A stretch of DNA of 64,000 nt from a virus, in the IMG/VR virus record IMGVR_UViG_3300028008_001363, positions 1 to 64,000 of that record. One strand, written 5' to 3'. The notes below the pieces were generated by a model. That model made no database searches, was not told the origin of the DNA, and saw only the letters and a program-made list of their open reading frames with translations. Positions within the stretch are counted from its first letter, which is position 1. Each line of letters opens with the position of its first letter. The position numbers were made by a program, and so were the translations under genes. This document shows positions 28,555 to 64,000 of this stretch, one piece after another.

Positions 28555-28875
28555 ATGATTTTTACAGAGAATGCGGCTGAACGTGTTAAGGAAATTATTG
28601 CAGAAGACCAAGAAGAAGTACAAGCACTTAGAGTATTTGTACAAGGTGGTGGATGCCACGGTTTTAGTTATGGATTTGGTTTTGAAAATGATATCGCAGA
28701 TGATGATACTGTTATTGAAACCAGTGAAGTGAAATTAGTAGTTGATAGCATGAGCATCATGTATCTTTCAGAAGCAACTATTGATTTTGTTAGAAGCCTA
28801 GAAGGCGAACGTTTTACAATCGACAACCCATCAGCAAGAACATCTTGTGGGTGTGGTTCAAGTTTTTCAGCATAG
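28555..28875 (+). CDS. erpA: A-type Fe-S carrier ErpA/IscA
   Basis: LRVFVQGGGCHGFSY, VDSMS, NP..SCGCGSSF. Confidence 0.93.
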   Translation: MIFTENAAERVKEIIAEDQEEVQALRVFVQGGGCHGFSYGFGFENDIADDDTVIETSEVKLVVDSMSIMYLSEATIDFVRSLEGERFTIDNPSARTSCGCGSSFSA

Positions 28876-28882
28876 GAGTAAC

Positions 28883-29119
28883 ATGTCAATTGAACAAGAA
28901 ATAATGGAAGTCGTAGCGAAGCGATTAAAGTGGAATGAAAACGACTTGTCATTAGAATCAAATCTGAAAGAAGATTTAAAAGCAGATAGCATCGATTCAG
29001 TAGAGGTGCTATTTGAAATCGAAGAAATGTACGACATTGTAATAGAAGACGAACTGGCAGAAGACATTAATACTGTTGGTGACATCGTAAATGTTGTAAA
29101 TTCACTACAAAATACATAA
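28883..29119 (+). CDS. acpP: Acyl carrier protein
   Basis: EDLKADSIDSVE phosphopantetheine motif, IEE.YDI.I.D, TVGD; SD AGGAG. Confidence 0.9.
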   Translation: MSIEQEIMEVVAKRLKWNENDLSLESNLKEDLKADSIDSVEVLFEIEEMYDIVIEDELAEDINTVGDIVNVVNSLQNT

Positions 29120-33235: not shown

Positions 33236-34282
33236 ATGTTAAAATCATTTTTTCTAACAAAGGAATACGGAGCATATGCATGGCTAATGTTAGCGTTTCT
33301 TTTGAGTTTGATTTGGTACAACGTAGAAATATTAGTTTTCTACAATAGTTGGAACAAAGAAATCTATGACGTAATTCAATCACTACAAGAAGAAAGATTC
33401 TGGGAACTGTTTCTGGGATGGGACGCTGGTAGATTTTTGAATTTCATTACTTTGACTGAGGGAGTACAACCATCCTTTGTTGAAATCATAGTCCTATATA
33501 CTCCAATCGCAGTATACGCCACATGGCAAACACAACGATACTGTTTTAGATGGCGAGAAGCAAACACTAAACACTATATGACACGTTGGGAAAACTCAAC
33601 AGCACAAATAGAAGGTGGCTCACAGCGTATACAAGAAGACTTAATGATTTTTGGTAAGACACTTCAAGGACTCTTCACTGGTTTCTTCAGTGCGATACTT
33701 ATTCTTTTTGCGTTTCTTCCAATTCTATGGAATCTATCAGAGAGTTTACCAGTTTGGAATGGACAAATCATTCCTGGTTTCTTAGTATGGGTAGCATTAT
33801 CTGTATCAATTGGTGGTACATTGATATCACTTCTATTAGGTTGGAAACTACCTAAACTTGAATATAACAATCAGGTAGTAGAAGCCAAGATGAGAAAGCA
33901 ACTAGTACATTCAGAAGATGACTTTAGTGCAAGAGCAACATCAACACTATTTCCAATGTTTTATTCAGTTCGTAGAAACTACTATAGACTATTCAACTGG
34001 TACATGGGATTTGGTGTATGGCAAACAGCATTCGGATTATGTGTAGGTAACTTAGCACTAGTTGTTTTAGCACCAGCATACTTTGACCAGTTAATTACAC
34101 TTGGTGTATTATTTCAAGTTCTAAACGCATTTGGTAGAGTTGAAAGTTCAATGGGTTATTTCATCGATAGATGGACAACAATCGTTGACTTCTTATCAGT
34201 CATTAGACGTTTGAGAGAATTTAACGTGGCACTTGACGAAGCAGACAGTGTTACTTTTGATGATGATGGAAATAGAATCTAA
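33236..34282 (+). CDS. sbmA: SbmA/BacA-family peptide transporter
   Basis: MLKSFF, FRWR, IEGGSQRIQED, LEYNNQVVEA..RK.LV..ED, WTTIV..S..RL.EF. Confidence 0.88.
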   Translation: MLKSFFLTKEYGAYAWLMLAFLLSLIWYNVEILVFYNSWNKEIYDVIQSLQEERFWELFLGWDAGRFLNFITLTEGVQPSFVEIIVLYTPIAVYATWQTQRYCFRWREANTKHYMTRWENSTAQIEGGSQRIQEDLMIFGKTLQGLFTGFFSAILILFAFLPILWNLSESLPVWNGQIIPGFLVWVALSVSIGGTLISLLLGWKLPKLEYNNQVVEAKMRKQLVHSEDDFSARATSTLFPMFYSVRRNYYRLFNWYMGFGVWQTAFGLCVGNLALVVLAPAYFDQLITLGVLFQVLNAFGRVESSMGYFIDRWTTIVDFLSVIRRLREFNVALDEADSVTFDDDGNRI

Positions 34283-48669: not shown

Positions 48670-49752
48670 ATGAACAACTATATTTTTACAAGCGAAAGTG
48701 TAAGCGATGGACATCCAGATAAAGTTTCTGACCAGATTAGTGATGCATTAGTTGATGCAGGACTAAAGAATGGCGATGAAACTACTCGTGTTGCTATCGA
48801 AACACTTGTAACCACTAACCACGTAACGGTAGCGGGTGAAGTAAAGAACTTTAACGTAGATAATGTAAAAGATATTATACGAGATAAAGTTAAAGAAATT
48901 GGCTATGAACAAGAAGGATTTCATTGGGATAATTTAAATATCTATAATGAAATACATTCACAATCAGGTGATATTGGATTAGGTACTGATGACTTTGGTG
49001 CAGGTGACCAAGGCATTATGTTTGGCTATGCAACTAATGAAAACGATGCAATGCTACCAGCACCAATTTACTATTCACATGAAATTCTAAAGAAACTAAA
49101 AGAACTTAGATTAGATGGATATGATTTCTTACTTCCAGATGCTAAGTCTCAAGTAAGTATTCAGTATGTTGGTGGTCGTGTTCAACGAGCAGACCAAATT
49201 GTAGTAAGTACACAACATAAACAGGGCTTTATGCATAGTCTTAAAGCACCAGTGAAAGAAGCAGTCAATAGTGTAATGGGAGATTTAATAGATGACAATA
49301 CTAAATGGCATATCAATCCTACAGGCAATTTTGTCATTGGTGGTCCTGATGGTGATACAGGACTCACCGGGCGTAAGATTATCGTTGATACTTATGGTGG
49401 CTATGCTCCCCATGGTGGTGGTGCTTTTAGTGGAAAAGACCCCACAAAAGTCGACCGAAGTGCCGCCTATATGGCACGGTGGTTAGCAAAGAATGTTGTA
49501 GCAGACAATATGGCAGATTGGTGTCAAATTCAATTGTCATATGCTATTGGTGTAAAAGAACCAACAAGTATCTATATAGATAGTAATGGACACAACAGAA
49601 CTATTCAAAAGTTTATCGAAGAAAACATTGACCTAACACCAAAGGGTATCATTGATAGATTTGATTTATTCAAGTTTTATGGTTATAGTGAAAACTGTAT
49701 CTACGGACACTTTGGCAACAAAGATGTACCATGGGAAAAGATTGGATGGTAA
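48670..49752 (+). CDS. metK: S-adenosylmethionine synthetase
   Basis: FTSESVSDGHPDK, GAGDQG, GGGAFSGKDPTKVDRS. Confidence 0.97.
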   Translation: MNNYIFTSESVSDGHPDKVSDQISDALVDAGLKNGDETTRVAIETLVTTNHVTVAGEVKNFNVDNVKDIIRDKVKEIGYEQEGFHWDNLNIYNEIHSQSGDIGLGTDDFGAGDQGIMFGYATNENDAMLPAPIYYSHEILKKLKELRLDGYDFLLPDAKSQVSIQYVGGRVQRADQIVVSTQHKQGFMHSLKAPVKEAVNSVMGDLIDDNTKWHINPTGNFVIGGPDGDTGLTGRKIIVDTYGGYAPHGGGAFSGKDPTKVDRSAAYMARWLAKNVVADNMADWCQIQLSYAIGVKEPTSIYIDSNGHNRTIQKFIEENIDLTPKGIIDRFDLFKFYGYSENCIYGHFGNKDVPWEKIGW

Positions 49753-50304: not shown

Positions 50305-51303
50305 ATGAGTACCTATATCTTAGTTGATTCGTTTAATATGTATCACAGAGCCAAACACGTAGCAATGCGTGGTGCTAATATTGATATGAAAATCGGTATG
50401 GCATACCACATTATGCTTAGTAGTGTAAAACTATGTTATAACAAATTCAATGCAGACCATGCCGTGTTCTGCCTAGAAGGTCGCAGTTGGCGTAAAGACT
50501 TCTATGAGCCATATAAGAAGAATAGAAAAGTTGCTCAAATGGCTAAGAGTGTTAGAGAGCAAGAAGAAGACCAAATCATGTTCGATGCCTATGCAGACAT
50601 GGTAGAGTTTTTAGATACAAAAACTAATGTAACTATGTTACGAAATCCAGAAGCAGAAGCAGACGATATGATTGCTTTGTTTATTGAGGCGCATCCAAAT
50701 GATAATCATATTATCGTATCAAGCGATAGTGATTACTTTCAACTTATCACTGACAATGTAACTATGTATGATGGTGTACAAAATCGTATCATTACTAAAG
50801 ATGGTTTCTTTAAAGATGATAAGAATATGACCCCTATCAAAGAGAAGAAGACTGGTGAGATTAAAGAGAAAGTAGACCCGAAGTGGGCATTGTTTGAGAA
50901 ATGTGTCCGTGGCGATACATCAGATAATATCTTTTCAGCATATCCTGGCTGTCGTAAGAAAGGTACCAAGAACAAGATTGGTATGTTAGAAGCATTCGCA
51001 GATAAAGATGCTGGTGGTTTCAACTGGAATAACTTTATGTTACAACGCTGGACTGACCATAATGGTGAAGAACATACTGTCCGTGAAGACTATGAACGCA
51101 ATGTTAAACTAGTAGACTTAACGGCTCAACCACATGAACTTAAAGTAAAGTTTATTGAAACTATTGCAGAGAATAGTATTCCTAAGACTAATGCTGGTGT
51201 TGGTATGAACTTCTTAAAGTTCTGTGGCATACATGATTTACAAAATCTTGCTAAGTCACCTGACGAACTTGCTAAAATACTTAACAATCCGTATCCGTCT
51301 TAA
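50305..51303 (+). CDS. rnh: T4 RNase H-like 5'-3' exonuclease/flap endonuclease
   Basis: ILVD, SWRK..Y..YK.NR, EADD, SSDSD, GDTSDNI. Confidence 0.92.
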   Translation: MSTYILVDSFNMYHRAKHVAMRGANIDMKIGMAYHIMLSSVKLCYNKFNADHAVFCLEGRSWRKDFYEPYKKNRKVAQMAKSVREQEEDQIMFDAYADMVEFLDTKTNVTMLRNPEAEADDMIALFIEAHPNDNHIIVSSDSDYFQLITDNVTMYDGVQNRIITKDGFFKDDKNMTPIKEKKTGEIKEKVDPKWALFEKCVRGDTSDNIFSAYPGCRKKGTKNKIGMLEAFADKDAGGFNWNNFMLQRWTDHNGEEHTVREDYERNVKLVDLTAQPHELKVKFIETIAENSIPKTNAGVGMNFLKFCGIHDLQNLAKSPDELAKILNNPYPS

Positions 51304-52022
51304 TGCATTTTATATTTGACGTAGATGGTACTCTAACACCAAGTAGAGATAGAATAGATGAAGACTTTAGACTATGGTTCTTAGAGTTCATCAAGTGGAA
51401 TAATGTTTACTTAGTTACAGGAAGTGATAGAAGTAAAACAGAAGAACAAGTTGGTGAAGAAGTATTTGAAAAGGTAGAATGTGTATACAATTCTTCTGGC
51501 AATACCAAATATAAAAATGGTATATGCGTAATGAATTCAAAAAACTTAGAACTGCCACGTGATGCGTATGCTTTCTTATTAAAGAAATCTATTAGTAGTG
51601 ATTTTGATATCGCCACAGGCAATCATTTTGAAGCAAGACCAGGACTATTAAACTTTAGTGTTGTTGGTAGAAATGCTAACAGAGTACAACGAAAGAAGTA
51701 TGTTAAGTTTGATACTACAACTAATGAAAGACAAAAGATTTCTGATGAATTTAACAAAAAGTTTACTGGTAAGTTTGGTCTAATATCACAGGTTGCAGGT
51801 GAAACAGGATTAGATATTATTGAGATGGGTAAAGACAAAGCACAAATATTAAAGGATTTTACATTCCAAGATAAGTTGATATTCTTTGGTGACAACATAC
51901 AATGGGGCGGCAACGATTATGGCATTGCACAAGCAATTGAATATGGTCCATATGCGTACAGTGAATGTCACAATGTAAAGAATTGGAAAGAAACTTGGAA
52001 GATACTAAAAAGATTTAAATGA
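51303..52022 (+). CDS. Phosphomannomutase-like HAD-IIB enzyme
   Basis: FDVDGTLTPSR, VTGSD, NFSVVGRNA, FFGD...GGNDY. Confidence 0.85.
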   Translation: MHFIFDVDGTLTPSRDRIDEDFRLWFLEFIKWNNVYLVTGSDRSKTEEQVGEEVFEKVECVYNSSGNTKYKNGICVMNSKNLELPRDAYAFLLKKSISSDFDIATGNHFEARPGLLNFSVVGRNANRVQRKKYVKFDTTTNERQKISDEFNKKFTGKFGLISQVAGETGLDIIEMGKDKAQILKDFTFQDKLIFFGDNIQWGGNDYGIAQAIEYGPYAYSECHNVKNWKETWKILKRFK

Positions 52023-55591: not shown

Positions 55592-55630
55592 TTGACAAAT
55601 CCTCGAATCGATGTATACTATAAGTATAGT
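55592..55630 (+). promoter_or_regulatory. Early promoter with overlapping palindrome
   Basis: TTGACA-16-TATACT; ACTATA-AG-TATAGT at 55617-55630. Confidence 0.8.
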
Positions 55631-55916: not shown

Positions 55917-55944
55917 TTGACAAATCCCCGAATCGTGTTACAAT
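55917..55944 (+). promoter_or_regulatory. Early promoter
   Basis: TTGACA-16-TACAAT. Confidence 0.8.
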
Positions 55945-57098: not shown

Positions 57099-57165
57099 AA
57101 GAATAGCCCACTAGGGGGCTGCCGGGATACGTAGGGTATCAGGTAATCCTAGACTACAGGAGACG

Positions 57166-57194
57166 GGAGGCTAACAGAAATGTTAGTCTCCTTT
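57166..57194 (+). terminator. Strong hairpin/terminator
   Basis: GGAGGCTAACA-GAAA-TGTTAGTCTCC-TTT. Confidence 0.7.
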
Positions 57195-57208: not shown

Positions 57209-57237
57209 TTGACTTTCCTTGATTTTTATGGTATACT
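57209..57237 (+). promoter_or_regulatory. sigma70-like promoter, leaderless geometry
   Basis: TTGACT-17-TATACT, ATG 6 nt downstream. Confidence 0.65.
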
Positions 57238-57243
57238 GGTGTA

Positions 57244-58629
57244 ATGATATTTGAAACTATAAAAAACCAATCACAATTACATCGGCATAAAACCGCAGTA
57301 ATTTGTGGTGACAAAAAATATACCTACACTGAACTTATTGAGAGTGTAGAAAAACTGGCTGCCGTTATGTCTACTGCATTTCTTCCAGGTGACAGATTAT
57401 TATTTGCTAGTGGTAAAGAATATCATTATATTAGAATGGTATTAGCATGTGACATTCTCGGTGTAACATTCATGCCTACATTTCCAAATCTGCCAAAAGA
57501 TGTAGTAGATGGAATAGTAGAAGCAAGTTCACCAGACCATATTATACTAACTGAGGCTGATGCTTTAGCCTTAGAACCACATAACAAAGCACTGATATAT
57601 TCTAAGAAAACCGACCATACATACACAGTATTATTCACAAGTGGTACAACCGGTAAACCTAAAGCAGTTGCACATACGAGTGCAGGATGTTTGATGGCAT
57701 GTTTCAATAGTATTAGTGTGTATCAAATGAGTTCAAATGATGTAATACTATCTCAATTACCACCATCAACCGTAGGAGGTTTGTATCTATACGCACTTCC
57801 AGGACTAATTAAAGGTTGTACAGTTGTAATCGAACAGTTCAATCCTAGACGATTTGTAAAGTTATGTGAAGAATATAAACCAACAATAGGCATAATTGTT
57901 CCAGCAATGATACTTGCTATGCAGAATTTAAAGACATGGAATGAATTAGATATGTCTCATTGGAGAGAACTAAGTGTTGGTAGTACAATTATACCAGAAG
58001 AAATGTTAGACATTCTATTCAGTAAAGGTGTCCCTGCCATCAGAGATTTATATGGGTGTACGGAAACTCAAGTTCCAGCATTCACATTCTTAATTGAACC
58101 AGATACTGAACACAAATTACAACTTGAATGCAATGACCAATATGAATACAAATTAGATAGACATGACCAGTTATGGTTAAAAAGTCCTCTACTAATGAGC
58201 AACTATCTGAATGCAGATGCAGAACTAGACAGTGATGGTTTTTGGTGTACAGGTGATGTATTTGAACGCAAGTATAATAAACTATTTTACAAGTCTCGCA
58301 GAAAAGATTTAATGAAAATCAACAGTCATAATGTATCACCAATTGGTATAGAAAATGCTATATTAGTATTAGACGGTGTTGATGAAGTATGTGTAATATC
58401 TAAAGAACGAGGTTTAGGTGAAAAATATATCGTAGCAATTATAAGTAGTCAGGACCCACAGATAAATAAATCGTTAGTGATGAATTCTATAGAAAGCAAA
58501 CTCATGCCATATGAACTTCCTAAAGATATAATCGTTACTAAAGAAACTCTGCCTAGAAATCAGATGGGCAAAATACAGAGACATGTTATACAAGGCATCT
58601 ACGGAGAAGTCAATGAAGACCAAAGTTAA
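57244..58629 (+). CDS. AMP-dependent (ANL family) acyl-CoA/acyl-ACP ligase
   Basis: FTSGTTGKPK, YGCTE, TGD, LPRNQMGKI. Confidence 0.92.
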   Translation: MIFETIKNQSQLHRHKTAVICGDKKYTYTELIESVEKLAAVMSTAFLPGDRLLFASGKEYHYIRMVLACDILGVTFMPTFPNLPKDVVDGIVEASSPDHIILTEADALALEPHNKALIYSKKTDHTYTVLFTSGTTGKPKAVAHTSAGCLMACFNSISVYQMSSNDVILSQLPPSTVGGLYLYALPGLIKGCTVVIEQFNPRRFVKLCEEYKPTIGIIVPAMILAMQNLKTWNELDMSHWRELSVGSTIIPEEMLDILFSKGVPAIRDLYGCTETQVPAFTFLIEPDTEHKLQLECNDQYEYKLDRHDQLWLKSPLLMSNYLNADAELDSDGFWCTGDVFERKYNKLFYKSRRKDLMKINSHNVSPIGIENAILVLDGVDEVCVISKERGLGEKYIVAIISSQDPQINKSLVMNSIESKLMPYELPKDIIVTKETLPRNQMGKIQRHVIQGIYGEVNEDQS

Positions 58630-60301
58630 AAAGATAGTTGTTGTCGGCGGTGGTGTAGGCGGTTGGCTATCTGCATCTTGGCTAAAAACAAAACATCCAG
58701 AACTAGACATAACCCTTATTGAAAGTGATAAAGTAGGAACTATTGGTATTGGTGAAAGTGTCTTACCTCGCCTAGGAACTATGTTAAGTGATATAGGGCT
58801 AGAAGAACGAGAGTGGATGTCTTATACACATTCAATATACAAACTTGGTAATAAATTTATTGGCTGGAATATTCCAGGTAAAAGAGACCATGTTACTAAT
58901 CACTGGTGGCCTTCTAAGTTTGATGAATCATATTATGGATTTTCTTATGCCTTACCAGAAGAACACTTAGCATCAAGTTATTATAATCAATTAAAGACTA
59001 CCGATTTGTTTTACAACTCTAAAGGTAAAGAAGGTGTTAATGATAAATGGAATGATTATTGGCTTCAATTAGCACGTGATGGTAGAAAAAACTTATGGGA
59101 GATTGCACAAGATACACAAGAGGCAACTTACTTGATGGACTACTGTAAGTCTCCTTATGACATGAATGACAATCTGATGTTAGGTTCATGGGAAAGTCTA
59201 ACATATCATATCGATGCAAATAGATTTCCGAAACTAATTAAAGATAGAGTTGCGATACCAAAGGGTGTTAAGCACATACATGGACACATATCTGAGATTA
59301 AAAAAGATGCCGACGGATACATATCATCTGTCGTAACAGACGCAGGCGAAGAATATAGTGGTGATTTATTTTTAGATTGCACAGGCTTTCATAGAGTTCT
59401 TACAAAAGAAATGGATGTCGAATGGAAACCTTATAATGAAATTACTACGGACAATTTAATCTTTGCACCAATAAAATACAATGACCCAGTAAAAGAAATG
59501 CGTCCATATACTATGAGCAATGCAATGGATGAAGGTTGGTTGTTTATCATTTCATTATATAATAGAATGGGTTCAGGTTATATATTTGATGCTAGTGAGA
59601 TATCTCCAGAAGATGCAATGAAGAAGTATAAAAAGTATTGGGAAGGTCACGAGTTTATAAGAGAACCTAGACATATAAAATGGGATGCTGGTAAATACGA
59701 TACGCAATGGAATAACAATGTAGTATCAATCGGAATGACTGGTGGAATGATTGAACCTATGGAAGCAAACGTGTTAGCACTAGCACAGGCTGGTATGAAA
59801 ATGGTTGAACGAATTATTTCACGTGCAGATGAAAATGATGAAGTGATTGGCAAAGCATCAATCAAGGCATATAATAGTAACCTGAATTGGCTGTTCGATA
59901 ACATAACAAAATTTGTAGACTATCACTATACTTTAAGTGACAGAACTGACACACCTTTCTGGGCTAAAAAACACCAAAGAGGCATTGATGAAAATCATAA
60001 AGAAGAAATATGGAAGCAGTATAGAAATCCTAGATGCACACCAGAATCAGGTGTACCAGATTATATGTGGGCACAAGTAGCCGTTTCTATGGACAAGTTT
60101 GATGATGATGTTGAACTTCATGTTCGTCCAGACTTATTAGAGAAAGCAAACGAATCATTTGAATGGTTAAGAAAATCTAGTAAACGAAATGGAATATATG
60201 CACCAAACGCCTATGAATGGAATAAGAAAATGTTATTCGGTGATAGAACTCATAGTGAAGTACTAGAAGAAAGTTTAAAACCACAAGATGAAGATAGTTA
60301 A
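58613..60301 (+). CDS. Flavin-dependent tryptophan-halogenase-family protein
   Basis: VVGGGVGG, IGIGES, YKLGNKF, YHIDA, DLFLDCTGF, EPMEA. Confidence 0.88.
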   Translation: MKTKVKKIVVVGGGVGGWLSASWLKTKHPELDITLIESDKVGTIGIGESVLPRLGTMLSDIGLEEREWMSYTHSIYKLGNKFIGWNIPGKRDHVTNHWWPSKFDESYYGFSYALPEEHLASSYYNQLKTTDLFYNSKGKEGVNDKWNDYWLQLARDGRKNLWEIAQDTQEATYLMDYCKSPYDMNDNLMLGSWESLTYHIDANRFPKLIKDRVAIPKGVKHIHGHISEIKKDADGYISSVVTDAGEEYSGDLFLDCTGFHRVLTKEMDVEWKPYNEITTDNLIFAPIKYNDPVKEMRPYTMSNAMDEGWLFIISLYNRMGSGYIFDASEISPEDAMKKYKKYWEGHEFIREPRHIKWDAGKYDTQWNNNVVSIGMTGGMIEPMEANVLALAQAGMKMVERIISRADENDEVIGKASIKAYNSNLNWLFDNITKFVDYHYTLSDRTDTPFWAKKHQRGIDENHKEEIWKQYRNPRCTPESGVPDYMWAQVAVSMDKFDDDVELHVRPDLLEKANESFEWLRKSSKRNGIYAPNAYEWNKKMLFGDRTHSEVLEESLKPQDEDS

Positions 60302-60899
60302 AACATTTATAGGTAAGAATAGTTTTGAATTTAATCTTGTAGAATATGACCCAAGTCTACAGAGTGATTTAGAAGATTTCTGTAAGCGATGTGACCGAGA
60401 AGGTTACACCAATAACGCAAGTTTTAAAGCATTGAAACTTGGCAAATGGGGTAACTTAGAAAAGTGGTGGCTTGTTTATCATAAAGATAAGATTATCAGC
60501 ATGAGTGGTGCCCATTATTTTCCACACTTACATTCTAACTGTTTTATTATATTAAGTAGAATGGCTACAATGAAGGCATATAATGGAATGGCATCGCCTT
60601 CTGTGTCGGCTAGAAAGATGCAACACAACTTTGCATTTGGAGTTTTTATGCCAGTTCAAATAGATTGGTGTTTAGAAATGGGTGCTACAGATATTATAGG
60701 AACTACCAACTCACCAAAAAACGACACAGATAGAAGTGGCACAATGTTTAAAGTCCACGAATATGCTGACAAGTTTTTTAAGATAGGTGACAAAGCAACT
60801 AGAATACATAAAGACTTTCCAAGTTACAATACACTACAAGATATTTGGAGATTTAATGTAAGAGACTTTGCGACAATGGAAAAGATAAAATACAAATGA
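60288..60899 (+). CDS. Putative GNAT-fold acyltransferase
   Basis: WWLVYHKDKIISMSG...ILSRMAT...YNG pattern. Confidence 0.4.
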   Translation: MKIVKTFIGKNSFEFNLVEYDPSLQSDLEDFCKRCDREGYTNNASFKALKLGKWGNLEKWWLVYHKDKIISMSGAHYFPHLHSNCFIILSRMATMKAYNGMASPSVSARKMQHNFAFGVFMPVQIDWCLEMGATDIIGTTNSPKNDTDRSGTMFKVHEYADKFFKIGDKATRIHKDFPSYNTLQDIWRFNVRDFATMEKIKYK

Positions 60900-62047
60900 C
60901 AGTATATATTAACGCAATTAGTGGTCTAACTCCTTTTGGTGACCTAGAAGACACATGGAAGGCAATAACAAATGATGAAGTTTGTTACGGTCCTCTTACT
61001 AAATTTTCACATGATAAGAGCATCAGGTCTAAGGTTTCAGGTGAGGTTAAGTTTAATGCTGAAAACCATCCTATCATAACTGAAAGAGAACAAGATAAAA
61101 TGCCATCGTATATGCAATGGGCATTATCATCAGCAGATAAATTATTACACAAACAAGATTTAGAAAAAGACAGAACTGGTGTTCTTGTATCAACTGCCCT
61201 TAGTATGTATAACGAACCTCTACGAGCAAGTGAAAATAAGAATGTCAACACTTATACATTCACCCCAAATCTTATATCAAACAATATCAATATTAAATAT
61301 GGTTTTACAGGACCAAGTACAATGTTGTCTAGTGCGTGTTCTACAGGACTGTACAGTATCATTATGGGTTGTATGATGATTGAAACAGGACAAGCCGATA
61401 ACATAATTGCTGGTGCATTTGATGATTCGATTTATAAGGATGCATATAAACAGTTCGGTAAACTAAGAGCATTGTCAACAAAGTACAATGAAACTCCTGA
61501 AATAGCAAGTCGTCCATGGGATAAAGATAGAGACGGACTAGTTCTCAGTGAGGGTGGTGCATTATTTTTATTATCAAAAACTAAGACAAAAGATACAATA
61601 GCAGAGATATCTGGATATGCAATGAATAACGATGCATTCCAGGCTGTTGCTCCGCATCCAGATGGGACTATGATAGAAAAATGTATGAAAGATGCACTGT
61701 TTTATCGCACACCAGACTTAATCAATGCACATGCAACATCTACCCCTAAGGGCGATTATATTGAGGTGGATGCAATCAATAGATTAGGACTAGAAGATGT
61801 ATGGGTAACAGCAAATAAGTCGCAAATTGGTCACTTAATGGGGGCTGCCGGTGCCATAGAGACTGCTTTAAGCGTACTTTCACTAGAAAATGACATTATT
61901 ACTCCATCTTTAAACATAAATGAACTAGAAGATGGTTATAATATAAAATATACACCAACTACCATATCACATAAAGTTAATTCAGTACTGTGTAATAGTT
62001 TTGGATTTGGTGGGACAAATGCATGTATTTTGTTATCAAAAACTTGA
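60896..62047 (+). CDS. fabF: Beta-ketoacyl-ACP synthase II (FabF-like)
   Basis: ACSTG, NAHATST, KSQIGHLMGAAG, NSFGFGGTN. Confidence 0.93.
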   Translation: MTVYINAISGLTPFGDLEDTWKAITNDEVCYGPLTKFSHDKSIRSKVSGEVKFNAENHPIITEREQDKMPSYMQWALSSADKLLHKQDLEKDRTGVLVSTALSMYNEPLRASENKNVNTYTFTPNLISNNINIKYGFTGPSTMLSSACSTGLYSIIMGCMMIETGQADNIIAGAFDDSIYKDAYKQFGKLRALSTKYNETPEIASRPWDKDRDGLVLSEGGALFLLSKTKTKDTIAEISGYAMNNDAFQAVAPHPDGTMIEKCMKDALFYRTPDLINAHATSTPKGDYIEVDAINRLGLEDVWVTANKSQIGHLMGAAGAIETALSVLSLENDIITPSLNINELEDGYNIKYTPTTISHKVNSVLCNSFGFGGTNACILLSKT

Positions 62048-62071
62048 CAAGATTGCAAAATGTGTTATACT
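62044..62071 (+). promoter_or_regulatory. Early promoter overlapping the fabF stop codon
   Basis: TTGACA-16-TATACT. Confidence 0.8.
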
Positions 62072-62927: not shown

Positions 62928-62955
62928 TTGACAAACCACAGAACCATGTTATATT
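62928..62955 (+). promoter_or_regulatory. Early promoter
   Basis: TTGACA-16-TATATT. Confidence 0.8.
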
Positions 62956-63708: not shown

Positions 63709-63747
63709 TTGACAAATACTCGTTTTGGTGTATACTATAAGTATAGT
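63709..63747 (+). promoter_or_regulatory. Early promoter with overlapping palindrome
   Basis: TTGACA-16-TATACT; ACTATA-AG-TATAGT at 63734-63747. Confidence 0.8.
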
Positions 63748-63768: not shown

Positions 63769-64000
63769 ATGGGTCAACCACAAAAACAAGTAGCCACAGA
63801 AAGCGAATTAGATAGTGCATTAGATGATGTTCTAGCCGCTAATGGTATTGAAGTAGATGATACTCTACCAGAACCTGTAGTATTTGATTATACTGACGAA
63901 AAAGTCAAAGAAATGATTGTGAGTAGTCGTGTTCGCCTTCTTATTCGTCACCCATTTTTCGGTACACTTGCTACTCGATTGAAATTAGTCGAGGCAGAAT
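63769..64000 (+). CDS. Putative DUF2201-type metallopeptidase/VWA protein, 3' truncated
   Basis: SD GAGG; RVRLLIRHPFFGTLATRL. Confidence 0.65.
   Translation, partial: MGQPQKQVATESELDSALDDVLAANGIEVDDTLPEPVVFDYTDEKVKEMIVSSRVRLLIRHPFFGTLATRLKLVEAE

Follow-up and report, generated by a model that had tools for sequence, protein, structure and literature searches.

In a 64,000-nucleotide stretch of viral DNA (positions 1 to 64,000 of IMG/VR record IMGVR_UViG_3300028008_001363, hereafter the window), four overlapping genes at 57244-62047 encode an adenylating enzyme of the ANL superfamily (ANL), a flavin-dependent halogenase-like enzyme (HAL), a protein of the GNAT fold and a FabF-like elongating beta-ketoacyl synthase (KS). 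We lean towards the view that this operon tailors an acyl chain bound to a carrier, acting together with an acyl carrier protein (ACP) encoded elsewhere in the window and, in related phages, with an AcpS-type phosphopantetheinyl transferase (PPTase). The features that carry this view are observed directly, namely the identities of the genes and their catalytic residues, their co-conservation, the purifying selection acting on them, a conserved promoter, and the co-occurrence of the ACP gene with the cassette. A more specific proposal, that marine jumbo phages make a halogenated N-acyl small molecule of their own early in infection, by means of their own holo-ACP, PPTase, ligase, ketosynthase, halogenase and GNAT off-loader, is put forward only tentatively.

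The source record is a single 99,856-bp contig with a CheckV completeness of 26%, and the window belongs to the genome of an uncultured marine jumbo phage: its family-B DNA polymerase is nearest to the enzymes of two jumbo phages, Atu_ph07 and Phosso (48% identity), followed by those of the Rak2-like phages CBB and GAP32 (42%). All parts of the operon come from known enzyme superfamilies; what is new is a swappable, carrier-dependent acyl-tailoring module in a lytic-type jumbo phage, together with a new GNAT family. No description of a phage ligase-halogenase-GNAT-ketosynthase operon was found in the literature, and a survey of jumbo phages reports a different predicted cyanophage cluster with an amino-acid halogenase, with no mention of "acyl carrier" or "ketoacyl" (PMC7824862).

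Organisation and conservation of the operon

The four genes lie on the plus strand. The ANL gene (57244..58629, 461 aa, Pfam AMP-binding and AMP-binding_C) overlaps the HAL gene (58613..60301, Pfam Trp_halogenase) by 17 nt, or by 47 nt if HAL is read from 58583, the start of the longest open reading frame (ORF), which gives 572 aa; position 58613 is an ATG with a GGAG Shine-Dalgarno sequence and agrees with the N-termini of homologues. HAL overlaps the gene of the GNAT-fold protein (60288..60899, 203 aa, assigned by an AlphaFold2 model and structure matches) by 14 nt, and this in turn overlaps the KS gene (60896..62047, 383 aa, Pfam ketoacyl-synt N and C) by 4 nt (ATGA). Upstream, a hairpin of 12 bp (57159..57191, plus strand; folding free energy -26.5 kcal/mol, z -5.9 against shuffled sequences) stands between the stop codon of the preceding MoxR gene and a sigma-70-like promoter found by promoter scan (57209..57237, plus strand; TTGACT-17-TATACT with TG before the -10 box). 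The ATG of ANL is only 6 nt past the -10 box, a distance of 6-12 nt in most relatives, so that the operon may be transcribed with little or no leader.

The same layout of a G+C-rich hairpin, TTGACT or TTGACA, a T-run, a TATAAT-like box and the ANL ATG is repeated in 11 divergent related loci, where the -35 box sits inside or just past the hairpin and the TATAAT-like box 6-40 nt before the ATG. It is kept in every lineage examined despite diverged intergenic sequence, and this argues for the predicted promoter more strongly than a lone consensus match would. Near-consensus boxes (TTGACA-16-TATACT/TACAAT/TATATT, 11/12 matches each) precede neighbouring genes in successive intergenic regions as well (55592-55619, 55917-55944, 62044-62071, 62928-62955 and 63709-63736), and look like a regular early-promoter grammar of the window phage. 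Since the neighbours have such boxes too, including 62044-62071 for the next ORF, ANL, HAL, GNAT and KS are predicted to form one unit under their own host-type promoter. Contigs from four metatranscriptome studies cover most of the operon at 99-100% identity and span the HAL/GNAT and GNAT/KS junctions, consistent with transcription of the operon; the KS part at about 61.7-62.0 kb is uncovered in three of the four runs, and such contigs cannot show absence or level. The operon is probably functional and transcribed early.

An original prediction, made from the sequence alone, had taken the DNA for that of a phage and described four overlapping, translationally coupled genes with their own promoter; both descriptions are borne out by the polymerase, the overlaps and the conserved promoter layout. 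The synteny check that it had proposed also gives a positive answer. All 16 IMG/VR loci found via the halogenase have the order ANL-HAL-GNAT-KS with overlapping or abutting genes. Counting every IMG/VR locus other than the window's own, 27 from several lineages share this order and such junctions, at 45-98% identity. No DNA-level match to the operon was found in cultured-phage records. For all four genes dN/dS is 0.06-0.2 in unsaturated pairs, and they are therefore maintained by selection.

The operon stands between a MoxR-like AAA+ ATPase gene of the phage backbone (55974..57098, plus strand; Pfam AAA_5 and bpMoxR) and a vWA/metallopeptidase gene (DUF2201), of which the window holds the start (63769..64000, plus strand; the ORF ends at 65088 of the contig, and its homologue in L010 matches DUF2201_N and DUF2201). 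Here and below, L-numbers denote related loci and G-numbers related genome records, G001 being complete and G002 92% complete. This site was surveyed in 66 loci found via the flanking MoxR gene, which is 79-99% identical in 63 of them and 56-58% in three. The site is empty in 22 loci, with the vWA/metallopeptidase gene directly after MoxR; ten hold the four-gene core, 17 the core with one or two fatty-acid desaturases in three arrangements, seven an alternative cassette without halogenase and KS, and ten are cut by contig ends. On a tree of MoxR these states are interleaved, parsimony calling for at least 7 changes in the presence of the halogenase/KS cassette, and the window's own well-supported MoxR clade holds 7 four-gene versus 7 alternative cassettes. 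Between the window and L002, MoxR is 96% identical whereas the cassette proteins are 55-74% identical with saturated dS; cassette alleles have therefore been exchanged on a conserved backbone. Exchange on a smaller scale is suggested by L004 and L013, in which ANL, HAL and GNAT are 85-89% identical and KS only 68%, a mosaic that suggests recombination within the operon.

In the alternative cassette, ANL is reduced to its N-domain (342-369 aa, 54-64% identical to the window ANL) and accompanied by a GNAT-like protein (24-28%) and small ORFs. These truncated ANL forms look maintained and not freshly broken, as they make up about 25 protein clusters in a large collection. The cassette is seen at L069:11267-13778 and also in L021, L023, L029-L031 and L035, and includes a DUF6356 ORF and a second ANL fragment.

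Composite terminator/early-promoter elements of T4-like phages, named PeSLs, are thought to drive module shuffling (PMC2839356, PMC4122927). A stable hairpin directly before or overlapping a predicted sigma-70-type promoter is likewise found at this module border, the hairpin being the putative terminator half of a PeSL-like composite element. As with PeSL modules, a hairpin terminator and an early sigma-70-type promoter stand beside a swappable module between core genes, and near-identical backbones hold differing modules; PeSLs, however, come from T4-like phages and mostly border ORFan modules, whereas the unit here spans 4.8 kb, encodes several enzymes as one operon and belongs to a jumbo phage. 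We infer recombination at the hairpin/promoter element of the MoxR/vWA site.

The carrier protein and the four enzymes

The gene of the remote ACP (28883..29119, plus strand), 28 kb from the operon, adjoins an IscA-like gene. It matches PF00550 PP-binding (E 4e-10), with the serine motif ADSID, and NCBIfam ACP models at or near cut-off. PF00550 is found in 11 of 16 records with the halogenase/KS cassette and in none of 18 others (15 with an empty site, two with the alternative cassette and one of unknown state), with a Fisher p of 1.5e-5 that ignores kinship and fragment records. The locus has the order g28003 - IscA-like - ACP - g29313/g30262 (IscA-like and ACP at window 28555-29119), and cassette-bearing relatives hold the ACP at this syntenic place: it is 100% identical in L102, a four-gene locus, and present in G001 and G005. 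With the alternative cassette, in L103 and L104, the ACP is gone, the locus neighbours being 80-98% identical and the gap measuring 209-226 bp versus 437 bp in the window; at L100 (G002) and L105, which have the empty site, IscA is followed directly by g30262, with no ACP. Presence and absence of the ACP across loci L098-L105 can be contrasted at least three times, in separate parts of the tree, and every contrast points the same way.

These comparisons argue that the ACP is functionally tied to the halogenase/KS cassette, which is a new result. Since it tracks KS and the halogenase, not the ANL/GNAT pair, the carrier is most securely tied to the KS step. An AcpS-type PPTase is encoded in the cassette-bearing G001 and G005 and absent from the cassette-free G002 and G003; none was found in the window's own contig, 26% complete. 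The complete G001 carries three ACP genes, at about 34, 115 and 245 kb.

ANL matches AMP-binding (PF00501, E 3e-42) and AMP-binding_C (PF13193, E 3e-6), and alignment with FadD13, its best PDB match (E 7e-28), places all of the expected motifs: the A3 P-loop SGTTGKPK, A5 YGCTE, A7 TGD and the A10 lysine in GKIQR. It reaches no NCBIfam cut-off, the best model being PRK06187 (176 bits versus 476) and all 25 models listed lying far below theirs, so that no specific subfamily (FadD, MenE, MatB, AcsA) can be assigned by the curated cut-offs. In a collection of 5.8 billion proteins its clade, confined to phages and metagenomes, comprises about 90 clusters at 53-100% identity, all metagenomic, and identity then drops to 28% with cellular proteins. 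With FadD13 matched only at E 7e-28 and every NCBIfam model below cut-off, the acid substrate cannot be read from homology.

The ketosynthase matches both ketoacyl-synt domains (N domain E 1e-32, C domain E 1e-23) and has an intact triad, with Cys in ACSTG, His in HATST and His in GHLMGAAG, besides the gate NSFGFGGTN; these residues mark a predicted elongating, decarboxylating enzyme. With FabF, its best PDB match (E 7e-58), and FabB of type II fatty-acid synthesis, it shares the two-domain thiolase fold, the Cys-His-His triad, and the Lys and Phe gate motifs, and its best NCBIfam matches are of this kind as well. Unlike FabF, it is about 30 residues shorter, has no accompanying FabD, FabG or FabZ, and belongs to a clade found only in phages and metagenomes (about 95 clusters, 52-99% identity, 381-389 aa) that is 34-38% identical to cellular FabF. 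It falls below the FabF equivalog cut-offs (TIGR03150, 270 bits versus 493.75; PRK07314, 271 versus 387).

HAL matches Trp_halogenase (PF04820) at E 4e-83 and the structures of PyrH, RebH, PrnA and VirX1 at E 1e-52 to 1e-58. The flavin motif GxGxxG is present (GGGVGGW), and K87, equivalent to K79 of PrnA and VirX1, is invariant in the clade and in cyanophage enzymes including the VirX1 locus, as are the glutamates E391 and E394 of EPxE. Viral halogenases are known, and VirX1 is used as a biocatalyst. The VirX1/"tryptophan halogenase" genes of T4-like cyanophages and of the pelagiphage HTVC008M belong to the same Pfam family and are, like HAL, virus-encoded and marine; HAL is about 27-30% identical to these enzymes, and GxGxxG, the catalytic Lys and Glu are common to both. 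The jumbo-phage clade differs from the cyanophage enzymes by an insert of about 40 aa and a different C-terminal region, and the cyanophage genes, present singly or as a pair, are surrounded by structural genes and have neither a ligase nor a KS or GNAT in their vicinity. No close bacterial or archaeal relative of HAL was found in a pattern-based scan of limited reach over one genome each for 185,579 species, in which the sole match, from an actinomycete, was 29% identical.

The 203-aa protein matches no Pfam or NCBIfam family, and a profile search found 140 relatives at E<=1e-3 among 1.84 billion representatives. An AlphaFold2 model built with a 69-sequence alignment reached a pLDDT of 91, an earlier model from 7 sequences (pLDDT 57) being too poor. 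With the better model, the best Foldseek match was 3d8p (E 3e-7), and of the 267 matches at E<=1e-3 all those listed were GNAT-fold acetyltransferases; VIA-align gave a Z of 11.8, an rmsd of 3.3 over 144 residues and 176 chains at Z>=8. The family profile matches the GNAT structure PDB 3t9y (E 9e-5), and 4 of the 69 family members match Pfam Acetyltransf_1. By eye, no clear match to the Q/RxxGxG/A CoA-binding loop was seen in the beta4-alpha3 segment of the GNAT alignments. The protein is thus modelled as a GNAT fold and as the founding member of an uncurated family. In two fused, longer family proteins (P0047 and P0051) no additional domain could be recognised. For distant members, scans of viral and metagenome contigs with single proteins found no loci, and a cluster look-up returned only unnamed metagenome proteins.

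The intact ANL motifs and FabF-type triad that the original prediction had listed are seen as described, and its GNAT-like third gene is confirmed by the model with its Foldseek and VIA-align matches and by the profile match. Its tie between the operon and the ACP holds as well, through the co-occurrence and the exact absence at the syntenic site in cassette-free and alternative-cassette relatives. The ACP gene and the MetK gene (48670-49752) that it had named are both real; MetK, however, is also present in empty-site relatives and is rejected as a pathway member, a better fit being the genome's large radical-SAM block. The earlier interpretation is thus supported in part: it keeps its phage, its coupled and co-conserved unit with a promoter, its GNAT-like protein and its ACP, and loses its link to MetK.

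A proposed pathway and its alternatives

In the pathway that we propose, ANL would activate a carboxylic acid with ATP and hand it to a thiol, either the phage holo-ACP or CoA. KS would load the acyl group on its Cys and condense it once with malonyl-ACP charged by host FabD, giving a beta-ketoacyl thioester unless host enzymes reduce it, phage ketoreductase and dehydratase being absent. HAL would then use FADH2 from a host reductase, O2 and halide to halogenate an activated carbon; this might be C2 of the beta-keto thioester, which can enolise, or might lie in an aromatic or unsaturated part of the starter acid. Finally, the GNAT-fold protein would release the completed acyl chain from its thioester by transfer to an acceptor with an amine or a hydroxyl group. 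We infer all of this chemistry: each step and the sequence in which the steps follow, as well as the substrate, the halogen and the acceptor. Flavin halogenases need electron-rich substrates, and a beta-keto thioester that can enolise is chemically of this kind; the Trp-halogenase type of HAL would equally fit an aromatic or unsaturated starter position. An enolate thioester has been proposed as the substrate of the halogenase CmlS (PMC8407142).

The nearest documented logic is that of the dichloroacetyl sub-cluster for chloramphenicol in Streptomyces venezuelae, which comprises cmlK (AMP-ligase/acyl-ACP synthetase), cmlM (ACP), cmlS (halogenase) and the PPTase Sven0914 (PMC4249514; PMC8407142). 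Here as there, an adenylating enzyme is combined with a stand-alone ACP, a PPTase and a flavin halogenase, and the halogenated acyl group, which in that pathway is finally joined to an amine by an amide bond, would have its counterpart in the product proposed for the phage. CmlS belongs to another halogenase branch, as it is not among the 30 PDB matches of HAL at E<=1e-5 and its NCBIfam model scores 30 bits on HAL; moreover, the chloramphenicol genes are bacterial and chromosomal and include neither a ketosynthase nor a GNAT, whereas the phage genes are split between the operon and distant loci. In the jamaicamide pathway, a short fatty acyl chain is worked on by the starter cassette JamA-JamB-JamC, with a ligase of acyl-ACP synthetase type, an ACP and a membrane desaturase, and by the flavin halogenase JamD. 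In its make-up this set resembles the sister cassettes that contain desaturases; unlike it, the window cassette has no desaturase and has a separate KS and GNAT. For the last step, FeeM-type N-acyl amino acid synthases, LuxI-type acyl-homoserine lactone synthases and OlsB are small GNAT-fold enzymes that take an acyl group from ACP and form an amide, which is the role proposed for the 203-aa protein, similar to them in size and fold. FeeM appeared only in the list of the pLDDT 57 model (rank 6, E 0.018) and is absent from the matches listed for the pLDDT 91 model, and, in contrast to these enzymes, GNAT-like relatives of the 203-aa family occur also in cassettes without an ACP.

The same pathway could also run with the flavoenzyme as a monooxygenase (hydroxylase or epoxidase), its product being oxidised and not halogenated, a variant that is quite possible even if we rate it below an even chance. 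WxWxIP, thought to hold the substrate off the flavin and so prevent monooxygenation, and Fx.Px.Sx.G have been described as general flavin-halogenase motifs (PMC8407142). Unlike the cyanophage enzymes, which keep canonical WxWxIP and F..P..S.G or close variants, the HAL clade deviates in both. The first reads W-L-F-I-I-S in the window, W-L-F-V-I-P in its sisters and W-N-F-V-I-S in the L010 group, with Phe for the second Trp clade-wide and Ser for Pro in the window and the L010 group; the tunnel motif reads M-I-E-P-M-E-A-N-V in the window (M..P..A.V). Against a monooxygenase stand the invariant lysine and EPxE glutamates and the strong match to the halogenase family model, and some active halogenases, such as Bmp5, have no WxWxIP (PMC8407142). 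With two general motifs deviating, one of which is dispensable in some active enzymes, halogenation by HAL is likely, though not established.

A different use of much the same chemistry would be a host-lipid remodelling set that alters the membrane of the infected cell instead of making a special metabolite, which we regard as rather unlikely. ANL would recycle fatty acids onto ACP, KS would boost elongation with the host's reductive enzymes, the GNAT would make N-acyl amino-acid lipids of the aminolipid type, and the flavoenzyme would oxidise or halogenate the chain. One or two membrane fatty-acid desaturases inside sister operons would suit such a set, and so would desaturases elsewhere in cassette-free relatives of a phage group in which lipid genes are common, the proximity of KS to FabF, the label of fatty-acyl-CoA synthase given to ANL by JGI annotators, and the use of host fatty-acid synthesis implied by the lack of phage ketoreductase, dehydratase and FabD. 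Yet cellular enzymes share only 28-38% identity with KS and ANL, which score under every equivalog cut-off, feeding host fatty-acid synthesis needs no dedicated phage ACP and PPTase, and no enzyme of the halogenase family is known to take part in the synthesis of membrane lipids. Acylation by the GNAT of a phage or host protein, for instance a virion component handled by the MoxR/vWA chaperone pair, is improbable. Its attraction is the position of the operon exactly between MoxR and vWA, a pair that has been described in jumbo phages with a proposed role in virion assembly (PMC7824862), and the many protein N-acetyltransferases among the top structural matches of the GNAT; fold matches cannot separate substrates, however, and the place serves as a swap site in general: 22 related loci have nothing in it, and its states are interleaved on the MoxR tree, so that recombination at promoter/terminator elements explains the position better. 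The operon promoter, moreover, is of the sigma-70 type and not a late promoter. That the genes are chance neighbours or decaying passengers with no joint function is hardly credible: the cassette is optional and truncated ANL forms exist in alternative cassettes, but the reading frames are free of stops and frameshifts, every catalytic residue is retained, dN/dS is low, order and overlaps persist at 45-75% identity, and the ACP co-occurs with the cassette.

Returning to the tailoring of a carrier-bound acyl chain, several points besides the two deviating motifs weigh against it or against its halogenated N-acyl product. ANL, which matches no substrate-specific model, could yield acyl-CoA instead of acyl-ACP. 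The pair of ANL fragment and GNAT-like protein exists without ACP, KS and halogenase, and therefore the GNAT need not depend on ACP and may use CoA thioesters. The ACP, 28 kb away beside an Fe-S gene, could have another role, and its co-occurrence with the cassette is drawn from fragments and related genomes. Characterised enzymes of the Trp-halogenase type, to which HAL belongs, act mostly on free aromatic substrates. Searches that included the complete, cassette-bearing G001 found no FabD, FabG-type ketoreductase, FabA/Z dehydratase, flavin reductase or thioesterase; without ketoreductase, dehydratase, FabD and flavin reductase, host enzymes would therefore be needed or the chain would stay beta-keto. 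The metatranscriptome contigs could derive from carried-over phage DNA.

If the proposal of a halogenated N-acyl product is true, a lytic virus would for the first time be credited with a natural-product pathway that depends on a carrier protein, and viral flavin halogenases would gain their first native chemical context. The cassette places a viral halogenase-family enzyme beside a ligase, a carrier, a KS and an acyltransferase, so that its native chemistry can be tested by co-expression, and the ANL, KS, halogenase and GNAT clades, having no close cellular relatives, would be new enzymes. The findings suggest that uncultured marine jumbo phages hold optional and exchangeable multi-enzyme modules whose helper genes (ACP and PPTase) are kept or lost elsewhere in the genome, an organisation of pathways that is usually ascribed to cells. 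Should a halogenated acyl product be made in infected cells, it would be a new marine source of organohalogen.

Genomic surroundings

The ORF that follows the operon encodes a 271-aa phage ORFan (62103..62918, plus strand) with its own predicted promoter at 62044-62071. By synteny it accompanies the four-gene cassettes as well as the alternative ones and is missing from most desaturase variants; it matches no Pfam family, its protein-atlas neighbours are only phage hypotheticals, and its membership in the pathway is doubtful. Sister cassettes contain an extra gene of 241 aa, without a Pfam family, that tblastn identifies as a diverged desaturase paralogue. Desaturases are also encoded elsewhere in cassette-free relatives, at G002:C1:69387-69986 and 130300-130875 and at G003:C1:244318-244917, so that they count as general accessory genes in this group of phages.

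Nearly all genes of the window are on the plus strand, at a G+C content of about 35%, and they encode, besides the DNA polymerase, an ATP-dependent DNA ligase, a ClpB-like ATPase and a tail-fibre-like protein. Complete relatives of the window phage measure about 342 kb, G001 being a complete genome of 342.6 kb with terminal repeats. Elsewhere in the window, an SbmA/BacA-like inner-membrane transporter (33236-34282, Pfam E 2e-76) is unusual for a phage, and a eukaryotic-type phosphomannomutase of the PMM family (51303-52022, Pfam E 1e-24) adjoins MetK in all relatives examined.

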